A stretch of 64,000 bases of DNA from Spirochaetota bacterium. Lineage in GTDB: Bacteria > Spirochaetota > UBA4802 > UBA5550. Of this stretch, positions 3,836 through 37,905 are shown in pieces. The notes below the pieces were generated by a model. It worked only from the letters and a program-made list of their open reading frames with translations. It was not told the origin of the DNA and searched no databases. The stretch's first letter is position 1. Each line of letters begins with the position of its first letter. The stretch spans positions 155,078-219,077 of the forward strand of contig JAFGBT010000006.1 of the NCBI GenBank assembly GCA_016933025.1, read 5' to 3'. The position numbers and the translations under genes were made by a program.

Positions 3836-3935
3836 CTGGGCTGTCTCATAAGCCCCCTAAATCCCCCGAAGGGGGACTTTATGGAGCCTAAGCAACTGAA
3901 AAGCCCCCCTCTGGGGGGTTTGGGGGGCGGCGACG
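3836..3935. repeat. G/C-tract modular hairpin repeat, copy R1 (modules CCCCCGAAGGGGGAC and AAGCCCCCCTCTGGGGGGTTTGGGGGGC)
   Basis: Near-identical modules recur at 7744-7872 and in six or more further intergenic spacers. Confidence 0.6.
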
Positions 3936-5800: not shown

Positions 5801-6035
5801 CCGATTGGAAATATCCGCTCATCCCCGCCTGACAACGGCCGCTTATTAGTGGAAACAGATATCGATGTGCAACCGGAAACGCCAACGGTGATTAAAGTAA
5901 AGCAGCTCAATACATCCTGTCAAGTTATAATTTGAACAGGAAGCGCTCTCTGGTGAAGAGGGGAGCGGGACAAAAAAATCTACACCTGCACCTCGCCGCG
6001 CCGCCCGGCATGCTTCGGCCGTGCCGACACTGATC

Positions 6036-7743: not shown

Positions 7744-7872
7744 CTCACAAGCCCCCTAAATCCCCCGAAGGGGGACCGCCCTCACCCCCTTCCCCTCTCC
7801 CACAGGGAGAGGGGAGAAGGTATCATAGACATGTTACTAAAGCCCCCCTCTGGGGGGTTTGGGGGGCATCGC
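7744..7872. repeat. G/C-tract modular hairpin repeat, copy R2, inserted in the fliI-fliJ spacer
   Basis: CCCCCGAAGGGGGAC, CCCCTCTCCCACAGGGAGAGGGG, AAAGCCCCCCTCTGGGGGGTTTGGGGGGC; shares over 60 nt with R1. Confidence 0.6.
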
Positions 7873-7904: not shown

Positions 7905-9305
7905 TCATCGTACTATCCGCGCGAATGCCGGCGTCCTGGAGACGATATCCGGCCTCGCTGACGGCCTCTTTTCTGAAAACATGTCGATCAGCCTCTTCAC
8001 GATAGATGCGTATTCGTCCTGCTCGTATATTCCCTGCCGCAAAAAAGCATTCATCGTATCCATCATTTCAAGTGCCCTGTCGACGGCCGGTACCGAACCC
8101 CGCGCGTACGCGCCCAGGCTGATCTCGTCCTCGTGCTCGGTGTAGGCCGCGAGGAGTTCGCGGAACTTGTTCGCCGCCTCCATGTGCTCAGGGGTAACGA
8201 CGTCTTTCATGCAGCGGGATATGGAGGCGAGCACATCGACCGCCGGGTAATGCCCCTTATGCGCCAGGCGGCGCTCCAGAACGATGTGCCCGTCAAGTAT
8301 GCTTCGGGCGTGATCGGCGATCGGCTCATTCATGTCGTCGGCCTCTACCAGGACCGCGTAAAATCCGGTGATGCTGCCGCCATCGGCGATGGTTCCCGCC
8401 CGCTCCATCAGCTTCGCCATGAGCGAAAAGGTTGATGGCGGATAACCGCGCATCGAGGATGGCTCGCCGGCGGCGATGCCCACCTCCCGCTGGGCCATGG
8501 CAAACCGGGTGATCGAGTCCATCAATAAATTCACGTGGAGTCCTTTATCGCGAAAAAACTCCGCGATTGCGTGGGCCAGGTAGGCCCCGCGTATCCGCAT
8601 CATGGCCGGCTGGTTGGACGTCGCCACGACTACGACCGTGTTCTTCAGGCCCTCCGGCCCCAGCTCCTTCTCGACGAAATCTTTAACCTCGCGGCCGCGC
8701 TCTCCGATGAGCGCCACCACATTCACGTCCGCGTCGGTAAACCGGGATATCATGGCTATGAGCGTAGATTTGCCGACGCCTGAACCGGAGAATATACCTA
8801 TACGCTGTCCCCGTCCCACCGTGTTGAGCCCGTCGATGGCCCTGATCCCGACCGAGAGGGGCCTGTCGATGACCACGCGCTCGAGCGGATTTATCGGCTC
8901 GCTGGTGACCGGATACCGCTCCTTCGTAAAGATGCTGCCCCGGCCGTCAAGCGGTTCGCCCACGCCGGAAATGACCCTGCCGAGGAGCTCCTCCCCAACC
9001 GGGACCATGAGCGCCGTACCGGCAGCGACGACGTCGGCGCCCGGGACGATCCCCTTCATGTCACCTATCGGCATGAGAACGACCCTGTTCTTGTTGAAGC
9101 CGACGACCTCGGCGTGGAGGTATCCGCCCCGGTCGAGCCGTATCTTGCAGAGCTCTCCGTATTCGACATCGGGACCGATCGACTCGATGGTGAGGCCCAC
9201 CACACGCTCGACCCGGCCGGTATACTTGATGGTCTCCAGCTCCTCAATGATACCCCTGTATTTCGAGAGGATATCGACCTTTTCATGTGGCAGGATTTTT
9301 ATCAT
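7905..9305 (-). CDS. fliI: flagellum-specific ATP synthase FliI
   Basis: Walker A GSGVGKST; T3SS ATPase conservation throughout; 466 aa. Confidence 0.95.
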   Translation of the reverse strand: MIKILPHEKVDILSKYRGIIEELETIKYTGRVERVVGLTIESIGPDVEYGELCKIRLDRGGYLHAEVVGFNKNRVVLMPIGDMKGIVPGADVVAAGTALMVPVGEELLGRVISGVGEPLDGRGSIFTKERYPVTSEPINPLERVVIDRPLSVGIRAIDGLNTVGRGQRIGIFSGSGVGKSTLIAMISRFTDADVNVVALIGERGREVKDFVEKELGPEGLKNTVVVVATSNQPAMMRIRGAYLAHAIAEFFRDKGLHVNLLMDSITRFAMAQREVGIAAGEPSSMRGYPPSTFSLMAKLMERAGTIADGGSITGFYAVLVEADDMNEPIADHARSILDGHIVLERRLAHKGHYPAVDVLASISRCMKDVVTPEHMEAANKFRELLAAYTEHEDEISLGAYARGSVPAVDRALEMMDTMNAFLRQGIYEQDEYASIVKRLIDMFSEKRPSARPDIVSRTPAFARIVR

Positions 9306-9335
9306 ACGTTATGTCTCATTGACATCCATTTTTTT

Positions 9336-9385
9336 GGCGCCCTCTGTTAGGGGCGGGTTTAAACCCGCCCCTAACAGAGGGCGCC
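9336..9385. repeat. 50-bp perfect palindrome in the fliH-fliI spacer (GGCGCCCTCTGTTAGGGGCGGG TTTAAA CCCGCCCCTAACAGAGGGCGCC)
   Basis: Read directly; 22-bp arms with a TTTAAA centre; lies 7 nt after the fliH stop and 30 nt before the fliI ATG. Confidence 0.7.
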
Positions 9386-9392
9386 GTATCGA

Positions 9393-10280
9393 TTATATCG
9401 TCGTCGTGCTCCTGATCGCCTCTTCTATGGCGTCAAGCTGCGTTGATATCTTCGCGTCGATGGCGCCGACGTCGGTCTCGATAATGCAGCCTCCCCGCTC
9501 GACCCGGGAGTCCTCGTAGATGTTGACCTTCTTCAGCGATTCCATCATCTTTATCAGCTCGTCCTTGTGCGCGGTGGTCATGTCGAGGTCAGCGAAGTTC
9601 ACGCGGATGTCGATCCGGTCGCGGTCTTTGACGCGCTTGATCGCCTCTTTGATGTTGTTGATGACAACCTCGCGGCGCTCCACGATCTCGTCCTTGATGA
9701 CCTTGCGCGCGATCATAAGGATCATCTCGGTCATCAGCTTCTCCGACGACTTGATGATGTCGTCGCGGATGTCCACGGCCGTGGAGACGATGGTGCCGAG
9801 CCGGTCGATGAGCCGCATGACCTCGGCCTGCCCTTCCTTGTATCCCTCTTCCCGACCGGCGTCGTAGCCCTTCTTGTACGCCTCGTGCTCGATCTCGGAG
9901 ACCTTGAGCTCGGCCTCCTTGATCATCTTCTCGGCCTCGAACTTGCCACGCTCAATCTCCCGCTCCGACTCGACCTTCAGGCGCTCGATCTCCTGGGTAA
10001 TCTGCTCCTTGGAGGTCTGGAGCTCGCGGAAAGCGGCCTGCCGCCCCTCCTCTTCTATCTGCTTGGCCTGCGTGCGGGCCTGCTCGAGCATGTCCTTGAC
10101 TTCTTCTTCTGTCTCGCGCCGGTACCTCTCGAGCTCCGCCTCCATCTCCTCGATGGACGGCCCCTGGTAGACGTCGATAGGATTCCCCTCGTCGTCGACC
10201 TCGAATTCCTTGAATTCCTCGCTTTCTATGAGGTTCTTCTGATATTTTGCCGGAAGCTCGATCTGCTTCGGGATGTTCAT
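9393..10280 (-). CDS. fliH: flagellar assembly protein FliH
   Basis: Charged coiled-coil N-half; FliH/YscL-like C-terminal domain (IRVNFADLDM...GGCIIETDVGAIDAKI). Start placed at the internal ATG 10278-10280, because the 10370 start would overlap fliG by 59 nt; weak RBS. Confidence 0.75.
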   Translation of the reverse strand: MNIPKQIELPAKYQKNLIESEEFKEFEVDDEGNPIDVYQGPSIEEMEAELERYRRETEEEVKDMLEQARTQAKQIEEEGRQAAFRELQTSKEQITQEIERLKVESEREIERGKFEAEKMIKEAELKVSEIEHEAYKKGYDAGREEGYKEGQAEVMRLIDRLGTIVSTAVDIRDDIIKSSEKLMTEMILMIARKVIKDEIVERREVVINNIKEAIKRVKDRDRIDIRVNFADLDMTTAHKDELIKMMESLKKVNIYEDSRVERGGCIIETDVGAIDAKISTQLDAIEEAIRSTTTI

Positions 10281-11417: not shown

Positions 11418-11480
11418 ACCAAAAATAGCCCCCCTCCGGCCTGCGGCCACCTCCCCCCATTAATGGGGGGAGGACGGGAA
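11418..11480. repeat. G/C-tract hairpin element in the fliF-fliG spacer (CCTCCCCCC ATTAAT GGGGGGAGG palindrome plus an AGCCCCCCTCCGG module)
   Basis: Read directly; related to the modular repeat family. Confidence 0.5.
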
Positions 11481-13186: not shown

Positions 13187-13348
13187 ATAGTCCTCCCGAG
13201 CCCGCCCTGAACAGGGCCCCTGCCAAAATAAATCTCACCAGAAGCAAAGACAATGCGACATAATACAGCTTATCAGGACAAAAAAAAATGTCAATTAATT
13301 TTTCTAAAAATAATAATAAAAATATACATGAAAATTAATTGGATAACA

Positions 13349-13392
13349 GGCGGGCTGTAGGCGAGGTCACGTGACCTCGCCTACAGCCCGCC
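13349..13392 (-). terminator. 44-bp perfect palindrome (GGCGGGCTGTAGGCGAGGTCAC GTGACCTCGCCTACAGCCCGCC) followed on the minus strand by a U-rich tract; candidate fliE terminator; member of the GAGGTCACRTGACCTC palindrome family
   Basis: 8 nt downstream of the fliE stop; an AT-rich tract follows in the minus direction. Confidence 0.55.
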
Positions 13393-13399
13393 TCGCCTA

Positions 13400-14890: not shown

Positions 14891-14918
14891 AGATCGGCCA
14901 ATTCTGAAATACTTTAAG
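14891..14918 (-). promoter_or_regulatory. possible sigma-28-like promoter upstream of flgB (TAAAGTAT-N10/11-GCCGATCT on the minus strand)
   Basis: Match to TAAAGTTT-N11-GCCGATAA, about 50 nt upstream of the flgB ATG; weak and unverified. Confidence 0.25.
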
Positions 14919-14988
14919 CTTTTTTTAGCAGGGGACATAATTTTTTTGTGAAAATCGGCTCTGTGATTGATTAGGACCCTGTCCGCAT

Positions 14989-15032
14989 GCGCCCCGGGAG
15001 GCGGGGTCTTGTGACCCCGCCTCCCGGGGCGC
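14989..15032 (+). terminator. 44-bp perfect palindrome (GCGCCCCGGGAGGCGGGGTC TTGT GACCCCGCCTCCCGGGGCGC) followed by TCATCTTTTTTAT on the + strand
   Basis: Read directly; terminator-like geometry on the + strand although the nearest upstream + strand gene is about 9 kb away. Confidence 0.5.
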
Positions 15033-15961: not shown

Positions 15962-15997
15962 GGGATCGCTCAAACCTATGCGAGGTCACGTGACGTC
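15962..15997. repeat. imperfect palindrome AAACCTATGCGAGGTCAC GTGACGTCGTATGGGTTT between convergent genes; GAGGTCACGTGAC core family
   Basis: 15 of 18 arm positions pair; shares its core with the 13349 and 18124 palindromes. Confidence 0.45.
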
Positions 15998-16038
15998 GTA
16001 TGGGTTTGCGCGACCCCACCCTCGCACCCGAATCCATT

Positions 16039-18123: not shown

Positions 18124-18163
18124 GCGCATGTGAGCGAGGTCACATGACCTCGCTCACATGCGC
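18124..18163 (+). terminator. 40-bp perfect palindrome GCGCATGTGAGCGAGGTCA CATGACCTCGCTCACATGCGC, 25 nt after the blc stop, followed by a T8 run
   Basis: Read directly; shares the GCGAGGTCACRTGACCTCGC core with the 13349 palindrome. Confidence 0.55.
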
Positions 18164-22610: not shown

Positions 22611-22715
22611 TTCTTGACAATCCCCCTAAATGGGGCCGCCCCAAAAGTCTCCTGCGACGCCCCCCCAACCCCCCGGAGGGGGGCTTGTGAGACAGCCCCG
22701 TTGGGGGGCGGGACG
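22611..22715. repeat. G/C-tract modular repeat copy R3 (inverted orientation relative to R1)
   Basis: The reverse complement contains GGCTGTCTCACAAGCCCCCCTCCGGGGGGTTGGGGGGGCG, matching the start and second module of R1. Confidence 0.55.
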
Positions 22716-22725
22716 TCGGGCCTCA

Positions 22726-24764: not shown

Positions 24765-24854
24765 AAACCAAATACCTCGTGTATAAAATCTTTAACGTAA
24801 TATCGCATATCCGCCTGAAGGCGCGGTTGCGTTCCCGCGCCTTCAGGCGGAAGC

Positions 24855-25241
24855 CTATACTTCCACCTCCGCCTCGACCTTCTGGAGCACCTCGACGCCG
24901 GTCTGCCTGGTGACTTTCAGGTCGACCTTTGCCCTGTTGCCCTGTATGTCTGACACGGCGCCCTCTATCGATATCGTGTCCTCGAGCATCACCGGCGCGC
25001 TGAACCGGCACCTGATCTTCTTGAGCTTGCCCGGATCGCCCGCCCAGTCGGTGACGGTCTTTGCCGCAAACGCGAGGGTGCAGAGACCCTGTAAAATTGC
25101 TCCGCCCAGGCCGACCATCTTGCCGAAATCCGGGTCGATGTGGATCGGGTTGAAATCTCCTGACGCGCCGGCATAATATATGGCCCGGTATTTATCGACT
25201 TTCTCGCTGCCGCTGAATGTCTCTCCTTTTTCGATAGCCAT
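24855..25241 (-). CDS. MaoC-like (R)-specific enoyl-CoA hydratase, C-terminal hot-dog subunit
   Basis: Motif GDFNPIHID; start at the internal ATG with AGGAGG RBS. Confidence 0.75.
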   Translation of the reverse strand: MAIEKGETFSGSEKVDKYRAIYYAGASGDFNPIHIDPDFGKMVGLGGAILQGLCTLAFAAKTVTDWAGDPGKLKKIRCRFSAPVMLEDTISIEGAVSDIQGNRAKVDLKVTRQTGVEVLQKVEAEVEV

Positions 25242-25252
25242 GGGCGTTCCTC

Positions 25253-25690
25253 CTACTTTCTCACCACAAAAGTGTATAACCCCCGGCACACGCTCCTGCC
25301 GTGCTGGTTCTTCGAAATCCCCTCGATGGTTATAACATCGAGCTTCTCCTTGTTCCTGATATCGCTGATTTTCGCCGTCGTGGTGATGGCATCGCCGGCC
25401 TTCACGACCTCGAAGAATTCGAACTCCTGCTCGCCGTGGACCAGCATCGCCATGTTCAGGTTAAGCTCGCTGTCCAAGAATATTGGCTCGATCAGATACG
25501 CGCCGAACACGACCGCGAAGGTCGGCGGAGCAATGATCGCGCCATATTTCGATTTTTTCGCAAACGCCTCGTCCATGAAATGGGGATCCTGGTTCTTGAT
25601 GGCCTTGGCGTACTCCTTGATCTTGTCCTTGCTCACATCGTAGGTGTACGACGGATACTCCTTGCCGATGAACTTCGTGTCTATTGCCAT
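25253..25690 (-). CDS. MaoC-like dehydratase N-terminal-type hot-dog subunit
   Basis: Hot-dog fold with HGEQEFEF; pairs with the adjacent C-terminal-type subunit. Confidence 0.7.
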   Translation of the reverse strand: MAIDTKFIGKEYPSYTYDVSKDKIKEYAKAIKNQDPHFMDEAFAKKSKYGAIIAPPTFAVVFGAYLIEPIFLDSELNLNMAMLVHGEQEFEFFEVVKAGDAITTTAKISDIRNKEKLDVITIEGISKNQHGRSVCRGLYTFVVRK

Positions 25691-33175: not shown

Positions 33176-33272
33176 CTCACCCCCTTCCCCCTCTCCTCAA
33201 AGGAGAGGGGGAGAAGAAGAATATCGCATTCTTCTCCTCCCCTTCTTCCTGTGGGAGAAGGGGCCGGGGGAT
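33176..33272. repeat. G/C-tract modular repeat copy R6 (CCCTCTCCT CAAA GGAGAGGG and CCCCTTCTTCC TGTG GGAGAAGGGG hairpins)
   Basis: Read directly; same module style as R2 and R7. Confidence 0.5.
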
Positions 33273-37014: not shown

Positions 37015-37054
37015 GCGGCGCCTCCCTGTTTTTTGGGAGACAGGGAGGCGCCGC
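37015..37054 (-). terminator. stem-loop GCGGCGCCTCCCTG(N12)CAGGGAGGCGCCGC downstream of the crotonase gene
   Basis: 14-bp perfect stem; weak U-tract. Confidence 0.4.
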
Positions 37055-37064
37055 ATAACATACC

Positions 37065-37844
37065 TTATCTCCCCTTGAAACTCGGCCTCCGCTTCTCTAA
37101 AAACGCGGCAATCCCCTCTTTCTTGTCCTCGCTCTCCGCAAGCCCTCCGAAGAGCCGGCTCTCCAGCTTCAACCCGTCCGCCAGTGGCATCTTCCCGCCG
37201 ACCAGGACAGCCTCGATGACGGCGCTCACGGCGAGCCGGCCCTTGAACGAAAGGTCCTTCGCGAACTTCATGGCCTCCTCCATGAGGGCGGCATGGGGGA
37301 CGACGCGGTTGACCAGCCCGATCCTCTCGCACTCGGACGCCGGTATGAATTTACCGGTGAGCATGATCTCAAGCGCCCGCGCCGGCCCCAGGAGCCGCGC
37401 CGCCCGCTGGGTTCCGCCGAACGCCGGCATGATGCCGAGCAGGATCTCCGGCAGGCCCATCTGCGCCTGGTCGCCGATGAACCGCATGTGGCATGCCATG
37501 GCAAGCTCGGTGCCGCCCCCCAGACAGAGGCCGTTGATCGCGGCGATTACAGGCTTTCGAAGGTTTTCTATCAGATTTATAATCCCCTGGGCCTCTGACG
37601 TGAGCGCCTCGCCCTTCTCGCGCGTGTCGACTTCCCGCACCTTGTTGACGTCGGCCCCGACGATAAATGTCGGGCCCTCGCCGGTGATTACCACGACCTT
37701 CACCGAATCGTCGGCGGCGATCTTCTTCATCGAGCTTTCAAGCTGGCGCATGGTCTCCTCATCCAGCGCGTTCATCGGGGGGTTGTTGATCTTCAGAAGG
37801 GCAACGCCCCGCTCGTTGACTTCGTAATAGCATTTGTCAGCCAT
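37065..37844 (-). CDS. enoyl-CoA hydratase/isomerase (crotonase family)
   Basis: AAINGLCLGGGTELAMACHMRF; paralog of the 3049-3825 gene. Confidence 0.85.
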   Translation of the reverse strand: MADKCYYEVNERGVALLKINNPPMNALDEETMRQLESSMKKIAADDSVKVVVITGEGPTFIVGADVNKVREVDTREKGEALTSEAQGIINLIENLRKPVIAAINGLCLGGGTELAMACHMRFIGDQAQMGLPEILLGIMPAFGGTQRAARLLGPARALEIMLTGKFIPASECERIGLVNRVVPHAALMEEAMKFAKDLSFKGRLAVSAVIEAVLVGGKMPLADGLKLESRLFGGLAESEDKKEGIAAFLEKRRPSFKGR

Positions 37845-37865: not shown

Positions 37866-37905
37866 ACCCTCACCCCTGCCCCTCTCCCACGGGGAGAGGG
37901 TACAC
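37866..37905. repeat. G/C-tract repeat copy R7 (CCCTCACCCCTGCCCCTCTCCCACGGGGAGAGGG)
   Basis: Near-identical to the middle module of R2. Confidence 0.4.

Follow-up and report, generated by a model that had tools for sequence, protein, structure and literature searches.

We analyzed a 50-bp perfect palindrome between the flagellar genes fliH and fliI in a 64,000-nt stretch of DNA from a Spirochaetota bacterium (contig JAFGBT010000006.1; the whole stretch is called the window below). Judged by comparison with related and unrelated loci, the palindrome is best filed as an unusually long member of the stop-proximal intercistronic hairpins that resemble repetitive extragenic palindromes (REPs), and not as a device specific to fliH and fliI. 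Its 26–28-nt core, TAG-N20-CTA, belongs by its sequence matches to a palindrome family that is dispersed in many unrelated bacteria. Taking identity and role jointly, we lean slightly towards a REP-like element that acts as a post-transcriptional stabilizer and decoupler of fliH and fliI. The palindrome and its immediate surroundings are as follows.

Positions 9336–9385, unstranded: 50-bp perfect palindrome (25+25); the RNA form has a 23-bp stem and a UUAA loop.
Positions 9336–9347, unstranded: left outer arm GGCGCCCTCTGT, with its partner ACAGAGGGCGCC at 9374–9385.
Positions 9342–9379, unstranded: 38-nt stretch CTCTGT + core + ACAGAG, equal to the inner part of a 56-nt palindrome in metagenome locus L086.
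Positions 9348–9373, unstranded: 26-nt core TAGGGGCGGGTTTAAACCCGCCCCTA; the same sequence is found between fliH and fliI in related locus L001, and its 22-nt centre in 68 metagenome contigs.
Positions 9386–9392, minus strand: 7-nt spacer from the fliH stop to the base of the stem.
Positions 9329–9335, minus strand: A7 run, directly 3′ of the stem on the mRNA.

The two arms, GGCGCCCTCTGTTAGGGGCGGGTTT|AAACCCGCCCCTAACAGAGGGCGCC, are 25 nt each, with 100% complementarity and zero spacer, and they form the 50-bp perfect palindrome of window 9336–9385. An earlier note on this DNA had described 22-bp arms around TTTAAA; this and the 25+25 form are one object at 9336–9385. Its location was confirmed: 7 nt separate it from the fliH stop, and 30 nt (9306–9335) lie between it and the fliI ATG. 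The order on the mRNA is the fliH stop, 7 nt, the palindrome, A7, 23 further nt and the fliI ATG.

When the palindrome was folded as RNA, it gave a 23-bp perfect stem with a 4-nt loop. Folding of the 121-nt context gave −62.3 kcal/mol (z = −9.3), an energy that was matched by none of 200 shuffled controls. As single-stranded DNA the palindrome folded at −33.9 kcal/mol (z = −12.4). As a chance control, we simulated the window 100 times under a first-order Markov model. The longest perfect stem had a mean of 9.7 bp and a maximum of 13 bp, and none was 15 bp or longer, compared with the observed 25 bp. A comparable palindrome does not occur by chance. A search of the window with the 22-nt arm, allowing up to 3 mismatches, found just the two arms of the palindrome itself, which is thus not repeated within the window. 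Rfam 15 gave no match at gathering thresholds over the whole window; a permissive Rfam search gave just sub-threshold generic-hairpin matches to microRNA precursor models, which we judged meaningless. A literature text search with substrings of the element returned nothing relevant.

The palindrome is an intercistronic stem-loop within a same-strand flagellar run, flgB-flgC-fliE-fliF-fliG-fliH-fliI-fliJ-SLT, and in this the earlier note was right. The genes and signals that matter here are listed below.

Positions 9393–10280, minus strand: fliH (FliH, PF02108); probable start ATG 10280, longest open reading frame (ORF) from TTG 10370; the stop is TAA at 9393–9395.
Positions 7905–9305, minus strand: fliI, flagellar export ATPase (ATP-synt_ab, T3SS_ATPase_C); ATG at 9305–9303.
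Positions 9306–9319, minus strand: conserved motif ATGAGACATAACGT of the fliI ribosome-binding region, equivalent to AGGAGACATAATA (Shine-Dalgarno region) in low-GC relatives.
Positions 14893–14916, minus strand: sigma-28-type promoter-like site TAAAGTATTTCAGAATTGGCCGAT, TAAA-N14-GCCGAT, upstream of flgB and conserved in relatives.

The TAAAGTATTTCAGAATTGGCCGAT site was the sole sigma-28-type promoter match in the window, and no such match was found between flgB and fliJ. The earlier note had called fliH and fliI co-transcribed. This is not an observation but it is probable, because the sole match precedes flgB and the run from flgB to fliJ has no match of its own; TAAAGTATTTCAGAATTGGCCGAT would then be the promoter of the transcript that contains the palindrome.

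To place the palindrome among its relatives, we used 80 loci that were retrieved with FliI from genome contigs, and the junction survey covered 78 related Spirochaetota loci (cited by number where needed). The closest FliI loci were all from uncultured Spirochaetota (Leptospirales-like metagenome-assembled genomes), with a best amino-acid identity of 91%, and the flagellar gene order was kept among the relatives. The fliH-fliI spacer ranged from 2 to 278 nt. Where it was at least 40 nt long, a hairpin of −10 kcal/mol or better started within 15 nt of the fliH stop in 33 of 44 relatives. In about 34 of the 78 relatives the spacer was shorter than 40 nt and had no hairpin. Perfect stems of at least 8 bp were found at fliE-fliF (26/58), fliF-fliG (20/73), fliH-fliI (21/79) and fliI-fliJ (5/66), compared with 0–1 loci at flgB-flgC, flgC-fliE, fliG-fliH and fliJ-SLT. 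The fliH-fliI stems started at a median of 4 nt past the stop; the start was at 2–5 nt in L001, L002, L044, L060 and L073, and at 7 nt in the window. The slot hairpins of most relatives had stems of just 8–14 bp.

The 3′ end of fliH and the motif ATGAGACATAACGT align across species, whereas the hairpin between these flanks is non-homologous from species to species. The distance from the hairpin to the ribosome-binding motif is steady at 13–16 nt in close relatives. The L001 slot holds TAGGGGCGGGTTTAAACCCGCCCCTA, identical to the innermost 26 nt of the window's palindrome; one step further out L001 has an A-T pair for the window's T-A, and it lacks the symmetric outer extension (GGCGCCCTCTGT/ACAGAGGGCGCC). 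L073 has a different 54-nt perfect palindrome, followed by A6. Most other relatives have TTT(T) after the slot hairpin where the window has A7, and low-GC relatives carry ordinary terminator-like hairpins with T-runs; the full A-tract/stem/T-tract form was seen in low-GC L022, L023, L028, L031, L034 and L052. A search among relatives for the window's outer arms in an empty form gave no convincing case.

Slot hairpins are of several types: the window and L001 have core A, L002 and L044 have core B, and L003 and L005 share a third type. The fliI genes of the window and L001 are 80% identical, and those of L002 and L003 are 92% identical. The hairpin types are thus discordant with the fliI tree, since the window and L001 share a core at 80% fliI identity while L002 and L003 differ at 92%. 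Flanks and position recur while the hairpin sequence changes, so the slot is conserved but its occupant turns over. Species differ in which hairpin fills the slot, so FliH:FliI stoichiometry is not bound to any one sequence. The earlier note had proposed a role in setting this stoichiometry or in protecting the upstream mRNA. Such a role is still the most plausible effect, given hairpins at 33 of 44 junctions, without attaching to this particular sequence. The same note took a generic repeat with no positional bias as the result that would speak against it. The core is indeed generic, but the bias is clear, as hairpins stand directly past stop codons and at certain junctions only. Like hairpins also follow fliE, fliF, fliI and non-flagellar genes; the palindrome is not special to fliH-fliI.

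The fliH-fliI junction of relatives also contains other repeats. An insertion of about 200 nt, similar to a MITE (a miniature transposable element with inverted repeats), lies between the ribosome-binding motif and the fliI ATG in L001–L005, L044 and L060 (about 5790–6000 in L001). Its terminal inverted repeats are CCCCCCTGTCCCCC.../...GGGGGACAGGGGGG, TAACGT is apparently duplicated at the target, and the insertion is 0 nt ahead of the fliI start codon. The window is an empty site for this element. Extra hairpins CTGTCATCGCGAGG...GCTCGCAATGACAG occur downstream of the ribosome-binding motif at the same junction in L009 (about 5880–5965) and L011 (5894–5922). By sequence, CTGTCATCGCGAGG...GCTCGCAATGACAG is another recurrent repeat type that appears to colonize the fliH-fliI spacer.

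To see where else the core occurs, we scanned metagenome contigs. The inner 22-mer was found in 68 loci from very different samples, on contigs with GC of 0.33–0.70. The exact 28-mer GTAGGGGCGGGTTTAAACCCGCCCCTAC (GTAG...CTAC) had 46 copies, and the flanks outside those 28 nt were unrelated. One 407-kb contig held five copies of the core, and six loci had a second, slightly degenerate copy a few kb off. The 28-mer is multi-copy in the genome of the Bradyrhizobium-like contig JAESGS010000031. Many metagenome copies lay near the 3′ ends of ORFs, at 6–40 nt, the ORFs being convergent or on the same strand; in six cases an ORF took its stop from the TAG of the core tag. In two samples (L147, L106), core copies stood at both intercistronic junctions flanking a livF-like ABC ATPase gene. 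L086, a non-orthologous locus with TPR and M23 peptidase genes (GC 0.48), contains a perfect palindrome of 56 nt; 38 nt of it are common to the window element, and just the outermost arms differ. The 64-kb window has one core copy, and about 0.9 Mb of related loci has one more. Neither core A nor the GCGAGGTCACGTGACCTCGC core turned up in viral contigs, which leaves a phage origin unsupported. BLAST of a 30-mer against plasmids gave near-matches only, in Gloeothece PCC 7822 (GTACGGGCGGGTTTGAAACCCGCCCCTAC) and a Leptolinea plasmid; the Gloeothece match fits the cyanobacterial families of GTAG REPs, which are discussed below. In ten low-GC termite-gut contigs (L081, L083, L088, L094, L099, L110, L124, L129, L132 and L136), the 28-nt core lies inside a longer repeated unit, cgtcattcctgcggaaggta-core-tacggcaaacaacgcaatcttgcagg, in both orientations.

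Long palindromes in the window and in its close relatives have a layered build, in which a 28-nt unit, NNAG-N10|N10-CTNN, sits inside outer arms that are independently palindromic; its tags are GTAG, TTAG, ATAG, GAAG, GCAG and GGAG. Examples are window 9336, 13348, 14989, 18124 and 24810, L005 7406 and L073 5918. An AG at the fixed offset of the 28-nt unit was present in 20 of 77 even-length hairpins, compared with about 5 expected. As a general habit of the core, nested insertion was rejected: 12 of 69 metagenome copies extend at least 1 bp past the tag, versus about 17 by chance. The only long metagenome copies were those of L086 and L111, and L111, at a contig end, is a possible assembly artefact. 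Small dispersed repeats of cyanobacteria are reportedly nested inside other palindromes (Elhai et al. 2008, Genome Research). The window shares with them palindromic units of 21–28 nt at the centre of other palindromes and layered hairpins. The sequences and hosts are different, however, the nesting suggested here derives from the layered architecture alone, and most metagenome copies of the core stand un-nested.

The closest described elements are the GTAG REPs (Di Nocera et al. 2013, PMC3733652). These palindromes are short and GC-rich, bear a GTAG tag and mostly stand no more than 20 bp from the upstream ORF's 3′ end. They occur between unidirectional and convergent ORFs, TAG is often used as the stop, and many are probably transcribed (PMC3733652). 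The stem-loop unit is 20–40 bp, ordinary REP stems are 6–13 bp, and the tag is single and unpaired, with GYAG and GTRG as variants (PMC3733652). The survey found GTAG REPs in Proteobacteria, Cyanobacteria, Chloroflexi and the Planctomycetes-Verrucomicrobia-Chlamydiae (PVC) group and reported none from Spirochaetes (PMC3733652), and the window sequence was not in its supplements. Among REPs, those with a perfectly palindromic sequence are recognised as a group (Corneloup et al. 2021, PMC8266576).

The window element shares many of these features. It is a short GC-rich palindrome with a tag that contains TAG, it is extragenic, and it begins 7 nt past the fliH stop, within 20 nt of the upstream 3′ end, between genes on the same strand; it is presumably transcribed. 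Its core family is multi-copy in other genomes and occasionally supplies the TAG stop. The 26–28-nt core has the size of the described palindromic unit, while the full 50-bp element exceeds the described range. The differences are also clear. The tag is TTAG...CTAA in the window and ATAG...CTAT in L001, not GTAG, and it is base-paired and present at both ends, in contrast to the single unpaired tag of classic REPs. The element is 50 bp with 25-bp arms, compared with stems of 6–13 bp, and its copy number in the lineage is apparently low. No motif of a REP-associated tyrosine transposase (RAYT; Y..NP + HUH) was found in the window or any fetched locus with a crude regular expression, which covered a small genome fraction. 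Full REP membership of the palindrome is not established.

Other classes of REP-related element were considered and rejected. A REPtron, with RAYT between two cores, was ruled out in L147 and L106, where the gene between the cores encodes the livF-like ABC ATPase. The palindrome is not a REP doublet forming a hairpin (REPIN), as there is no spacer, the arms are not independent REP-like palindromes and the whole is one continuous palindrome. It is not a MITE either: there is no internal non-palindromic segment, and the flanks TCGATAC and AAAAAAA are not a duplication.

For the role of such a hairpin, the REP between malE and malF of E. coli is the nearest model, and the window shares with it a stable stem-loop between genes that are probably co-transcribed. 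In the E. coli work of Newbury and Higgins (among it Higgins et al. 1988, which PMC8266576 cites), an intercistronic REP reportedly protected the upstream mRNA from 3′ exonucleases and led to unequal expression within the operon. There the effect was shown experimentally, whereas here it is inferred; in addition, E. coli REPs are imperfect palindromes of about 35 nt that are often paired.

We propose the following mechanism, in which transcription through the palindrome would be the premise for all functional consequences. The core would have been lengthened by 11–12 perfectly symmetric bp on each side, and the palindrome would fill a recurrent post-stop hairpin slot of the flgB-flgC-fliE-fliF-fliG-fliH-fliI-fliJ operon. 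A polycistronic mRNA would carry it and fold it into a very stable 23-bp stem 7 nt past the fliH stop. This stem (about −55 kcal/mol) would stall 3′-to-5′ exonucleases or provide a double-strand processing site, and the flgB...fliH and fliI...fliJ parts of the transcript would thereby get different lifetimes. The stem would also stop ribosomes that end fliH from sliding to fliI or re-initiating there. fliI would be translated independently, from its own weak GAGA-type ribosome-binding site in an unstructured A-rich stretch. The net result would be that fliI expression is separated from that of fliH and is probably lower.

Several points weigh against this proposal. The function is read from position and comparison. 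About 34 of 78 relatives are without a hairpin, which indicates that flagellar assembly in the lineage can do without the element. The stoichiometry argument is weak, because hairpins also follow fliE, where lower fliF contradicts known subunit numbers. Recurrence at the junction could be mere tolerance of insertions in the spacer. Finally, the TTAG tag, the single copy in 64 kb with one more in about 0.9 Mb, and the negative outcome of the crude RAYT search all tell against a REP-like identity.

Other explanations were compared with the REP-like stabilizer. A selfish or neutral insertion, that is, a small mobile or recombining hairpin that persists after stops with no selected flagellar role, is possible but in our view doubtful. 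Dispersal of the core in unrelated genomes, the swapping of slot hairpins between species with types discordant with the fliI tree, and the separate MITE-like element at the fliH-fliI junction of seven relatives all fit it, and it is credible because many relatives have no hairpin at this junction. However, the slot of low-GC relatives holds ordinary, non-REP-like hairpins, so that it is kept filled by unrelated sequences. The steady 13–16-nt spacing to the ribosome-binding motif in close relatives also argues against it, and a stem of about −55 kcal/mol only 7 nt from a stop would hardly be without physical effect on an mRNA. Cleavage by RNase III, which would cut both strands of the 23-bp duplex, detach the fliH part of the transcript from the fliI part and alter the stability of each, is unlikely. 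Bacterial RNase III needs about two helical turns of duplex, as in the T7 intercistronic sites. The predicted 23-bp perfect stem would be long enough (about 20 bp or more of uninterrupted double-stranded RNA), and four window hairpins have perfect 19–25-bp stems in the enzyme's length range. Symmetric lengthening would then have a rationale, because ordinary REP stems of 6–13 bp (PMC3733652) are too short for RNase III. Yet most relatives have stems of just 8–14 bp, so RNase III cleavage is not the conserved function of the slot.

Even less probable is an effect on the fliH stop itself, in which the stem at the mouth of the ribosomal mRNA channel slows fliH termination and lowers FliH rather than FliI. 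The short distances, 7 nt in the window and 2–5 nt in L001, L002, L044, L060 and L073, suggest it. REPs less than about 15 nt from a stop are reported to stall ribosomes and trigger the action of transfer-messenger RNA (tmRNA). From ribosome geometry, though, a 7-nt spacer would let the stop codon enter the A site with little or no unwinding, and FliH is needed in excess of FliI, so lower FliH is of no obvious benefit. A leaky intrinsic terminator (attenuator), giving a partial stop after fliH and less fliI-fliJ mRNA, we regard as improbable. The window has a GC-rich stem-loop straight after a coding region, as intrinsic terminators and attenuators do, and the slot in relatives has T-run versions: most slot hairpins are followed by TTT(T), and the full A-tract/stem/T-tract is present in some low-GC relatives. 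In the window, however, A7 stands in place of the U-tract. The mRNA reads AAAAAAA after the stem, and the opposite strand reads GTATCGA, with its T7 preceding the stem; no U-tract follows on either strand, so this is not a canonical terminator, as the earlier note had concluded. The stem is also about twice the usual length of terminator stems or more, and a terminator scan of the window did not list the palindrome. The earlier note had further suggested protein binding or a cruciform. For such an element acting at the level of DNA, whether as the binding site of a dimeric protein or as a cruciform with an effect on supercoiling or replication, nothing was found in support, and it is the most improbable of these explanations. 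Symmetry through the centre (TTTAAA) is unneeded by an RNA hairpin and is also seen at 13348 and 11450 and in L073 and L002, and the identical 26-nt core at 80% fliI identity suggests sequence-specific constraint or recent acquisition. But palindrome origin or homogenisation explains central symmetry equally well, other close relatives have a wholly different sequence in the orthologous slot, and no candidate binding protein was found.

A bolder extension of the REP-like reading is that TAG-N20-CTA 28-mers are ultra-small, phylum-crossing palindromes that time and again colonize post-stop slots and replace one another there, grow into long, layered and perfectly symmetric palindromes by insertion at the apex of resident hairpins or by arm-to-arm template switching, and, in this spirochaete lineage, serve as interchangeable cassettes that partition the flagellar operon transcript. 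We hold this to be speculative and rather unlikely as a whole. Such hairpin turnover and palindrome growth would be a mode not described for classic REPs.

If the functional reading is true, these uncultured spirochaetes use interchangeable hairpin cassettes to divide one long flagellar operon into segments that are tuned separately, a compact way to adjust subunit ratios without extra promoters. For annotation, long perfect post-stop palindromes in these genomes should be recorded as REP-like elements and not as gene-specific regulators. Three aspects are less ordinary: very different genomes carry the identical 28-mer, occupants of a fixed slot are replaced like cassettes, and the lengthening is always symmetric. 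The identical 28-mer at GC of 0.33–0.70, together with the always-symmetric layered lengthening, makes a small and tractable case for the spread of an element and the upkeep of its perfection. These aspects do not make the original palindrome finding highly surprising.

The window contains other hairpins of this kind. Nine perfect hairpins had stems of at least 10 bp, compared with 0.68 expected, and six of them had stems of 15–25 bp. Several of the nine start 3–12 nt past a stop codon within runs of same-strand genes. On a rough gene map, hairpins of −15 kcal/mol or better were found in about 14 intergenic regions, all at 3.8–38 kb. Hairpins started 0–14 nt past the upstream stop codon at seven same-strand junctions. 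Those in the flagellar run follow fliE, fliF, fliH and fliI, and others follow non-flagellar genes. Besides the fliH-fliI palindrome, the flagellar run has the following.

Positions 13348–13393, unstranded: sister 46-bp perfect palindrome, 6 nt past the fliE stop, with a 28-nt GTAG...CTAC core GTAGGCGAGGTCACGTGACCTCGCCTAC and 9-bp outer arms.
Positions 11450–11473, unstranded: sister 24-bp perfect palindrome, 12 nt past the fliF stop.
Positions 7791–7815, unstranded: 11+3+11 hairpin of the C-rich/G-rich type in the fliI-fliJ spacer.

Strong hairpins are regionally clustered, and window 38000–64000 has zero intergenic hairpins of −15 kcal/mol or better. The palindromes at 13348–13393, 18124–18163 and 15962–16017 have the centre GCGAGGTCAC(G/A)TGACCTCGC in common. 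The second of these lies 24 nt past the stop of a lipocalin gene and directly ahead of a response-regulator/SpoIIE phosphatase gene; the third, an imperfect one, has convergent ORFs on either side. From their shared centre, they look like a second small repeat family within 5 kb. A 20+4+20 hairpin at 14989–15032, about 70 nt upstream of the flgB promoter-like site, has the stem AGGCGGGGTC/GACCCCGCCT. The same stem is the fliH-fliI slot hairpin in L002 (1238–1261) and L044 (5757–5780), and it also forms a perfect palindrome of 38 nt at a different locus of L020, a distant relative (347–384). A strong hairpin at 24810–24851 stands 3 nt past the non-flagellar ORF 24855–25289, and its inner stem (GAAGGCGCGG...) is the fliH-fliI slot hairpin of L060. 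Another strong hairpin, at 37015–37054, stands 10 nt past an enoyl-CoA hydratase gene (37065–37844). C-run/G-run hairpins CCCTCTCCC-NNN-GGGAGAGGG with CCTCACCCC flanks are intergenic at 7791–7815, 33186–33212, 37880–37900, 3903–3928 and 22657–22716, and they resemble the terminal repeats of the MITE-like element in relatives.

The block AAAAAAATTATGTCCCCTG...GCTTAAAGTATTTCAGAATTGGCCGAT (window 14893–14919, minus strand) fits the sigma-28 (FliA) pattern TAAA-N14-GCCGAT. It is also present upstream of flgB in L001, L003, L005, L006, L008, L044, L060 and L073, which suggests that the whole flgB operon is sigma-28-driven in the lineage.

Between the palindrome and fliI, a downstream 5-bp mini-hairpin that might sequester the fliI ribosome-binding site was rejected, as it is not conserved in L073 or other relatives. 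The same spacer has a six-codon mini-ORF, ATG GAT GTC AAT GAG ACA TAA (window 9309–9329, minus strand). It starts within the A7 run and stops 3 nt ahead of the fliI ATG. An in-frame ATG...GAG ACA TAA is found in the window, L073, L001, L002, L003 and L005, and not in L044, L060 or distant relatives. The mini-ORF could be a re-initiation device, or it could be due to chance.

We also compared the FliH, FliG and FliI proteins of L001–L009, L044, L060 and L073 with those of the window. Amino-acid identity was 94–96% for FliH and 98–99.7% for FliG, and lower, at 85–91%, for the ATPase FliI. FliH is thus more conserved than FliI, the opposite of the usual expectation for FliH.

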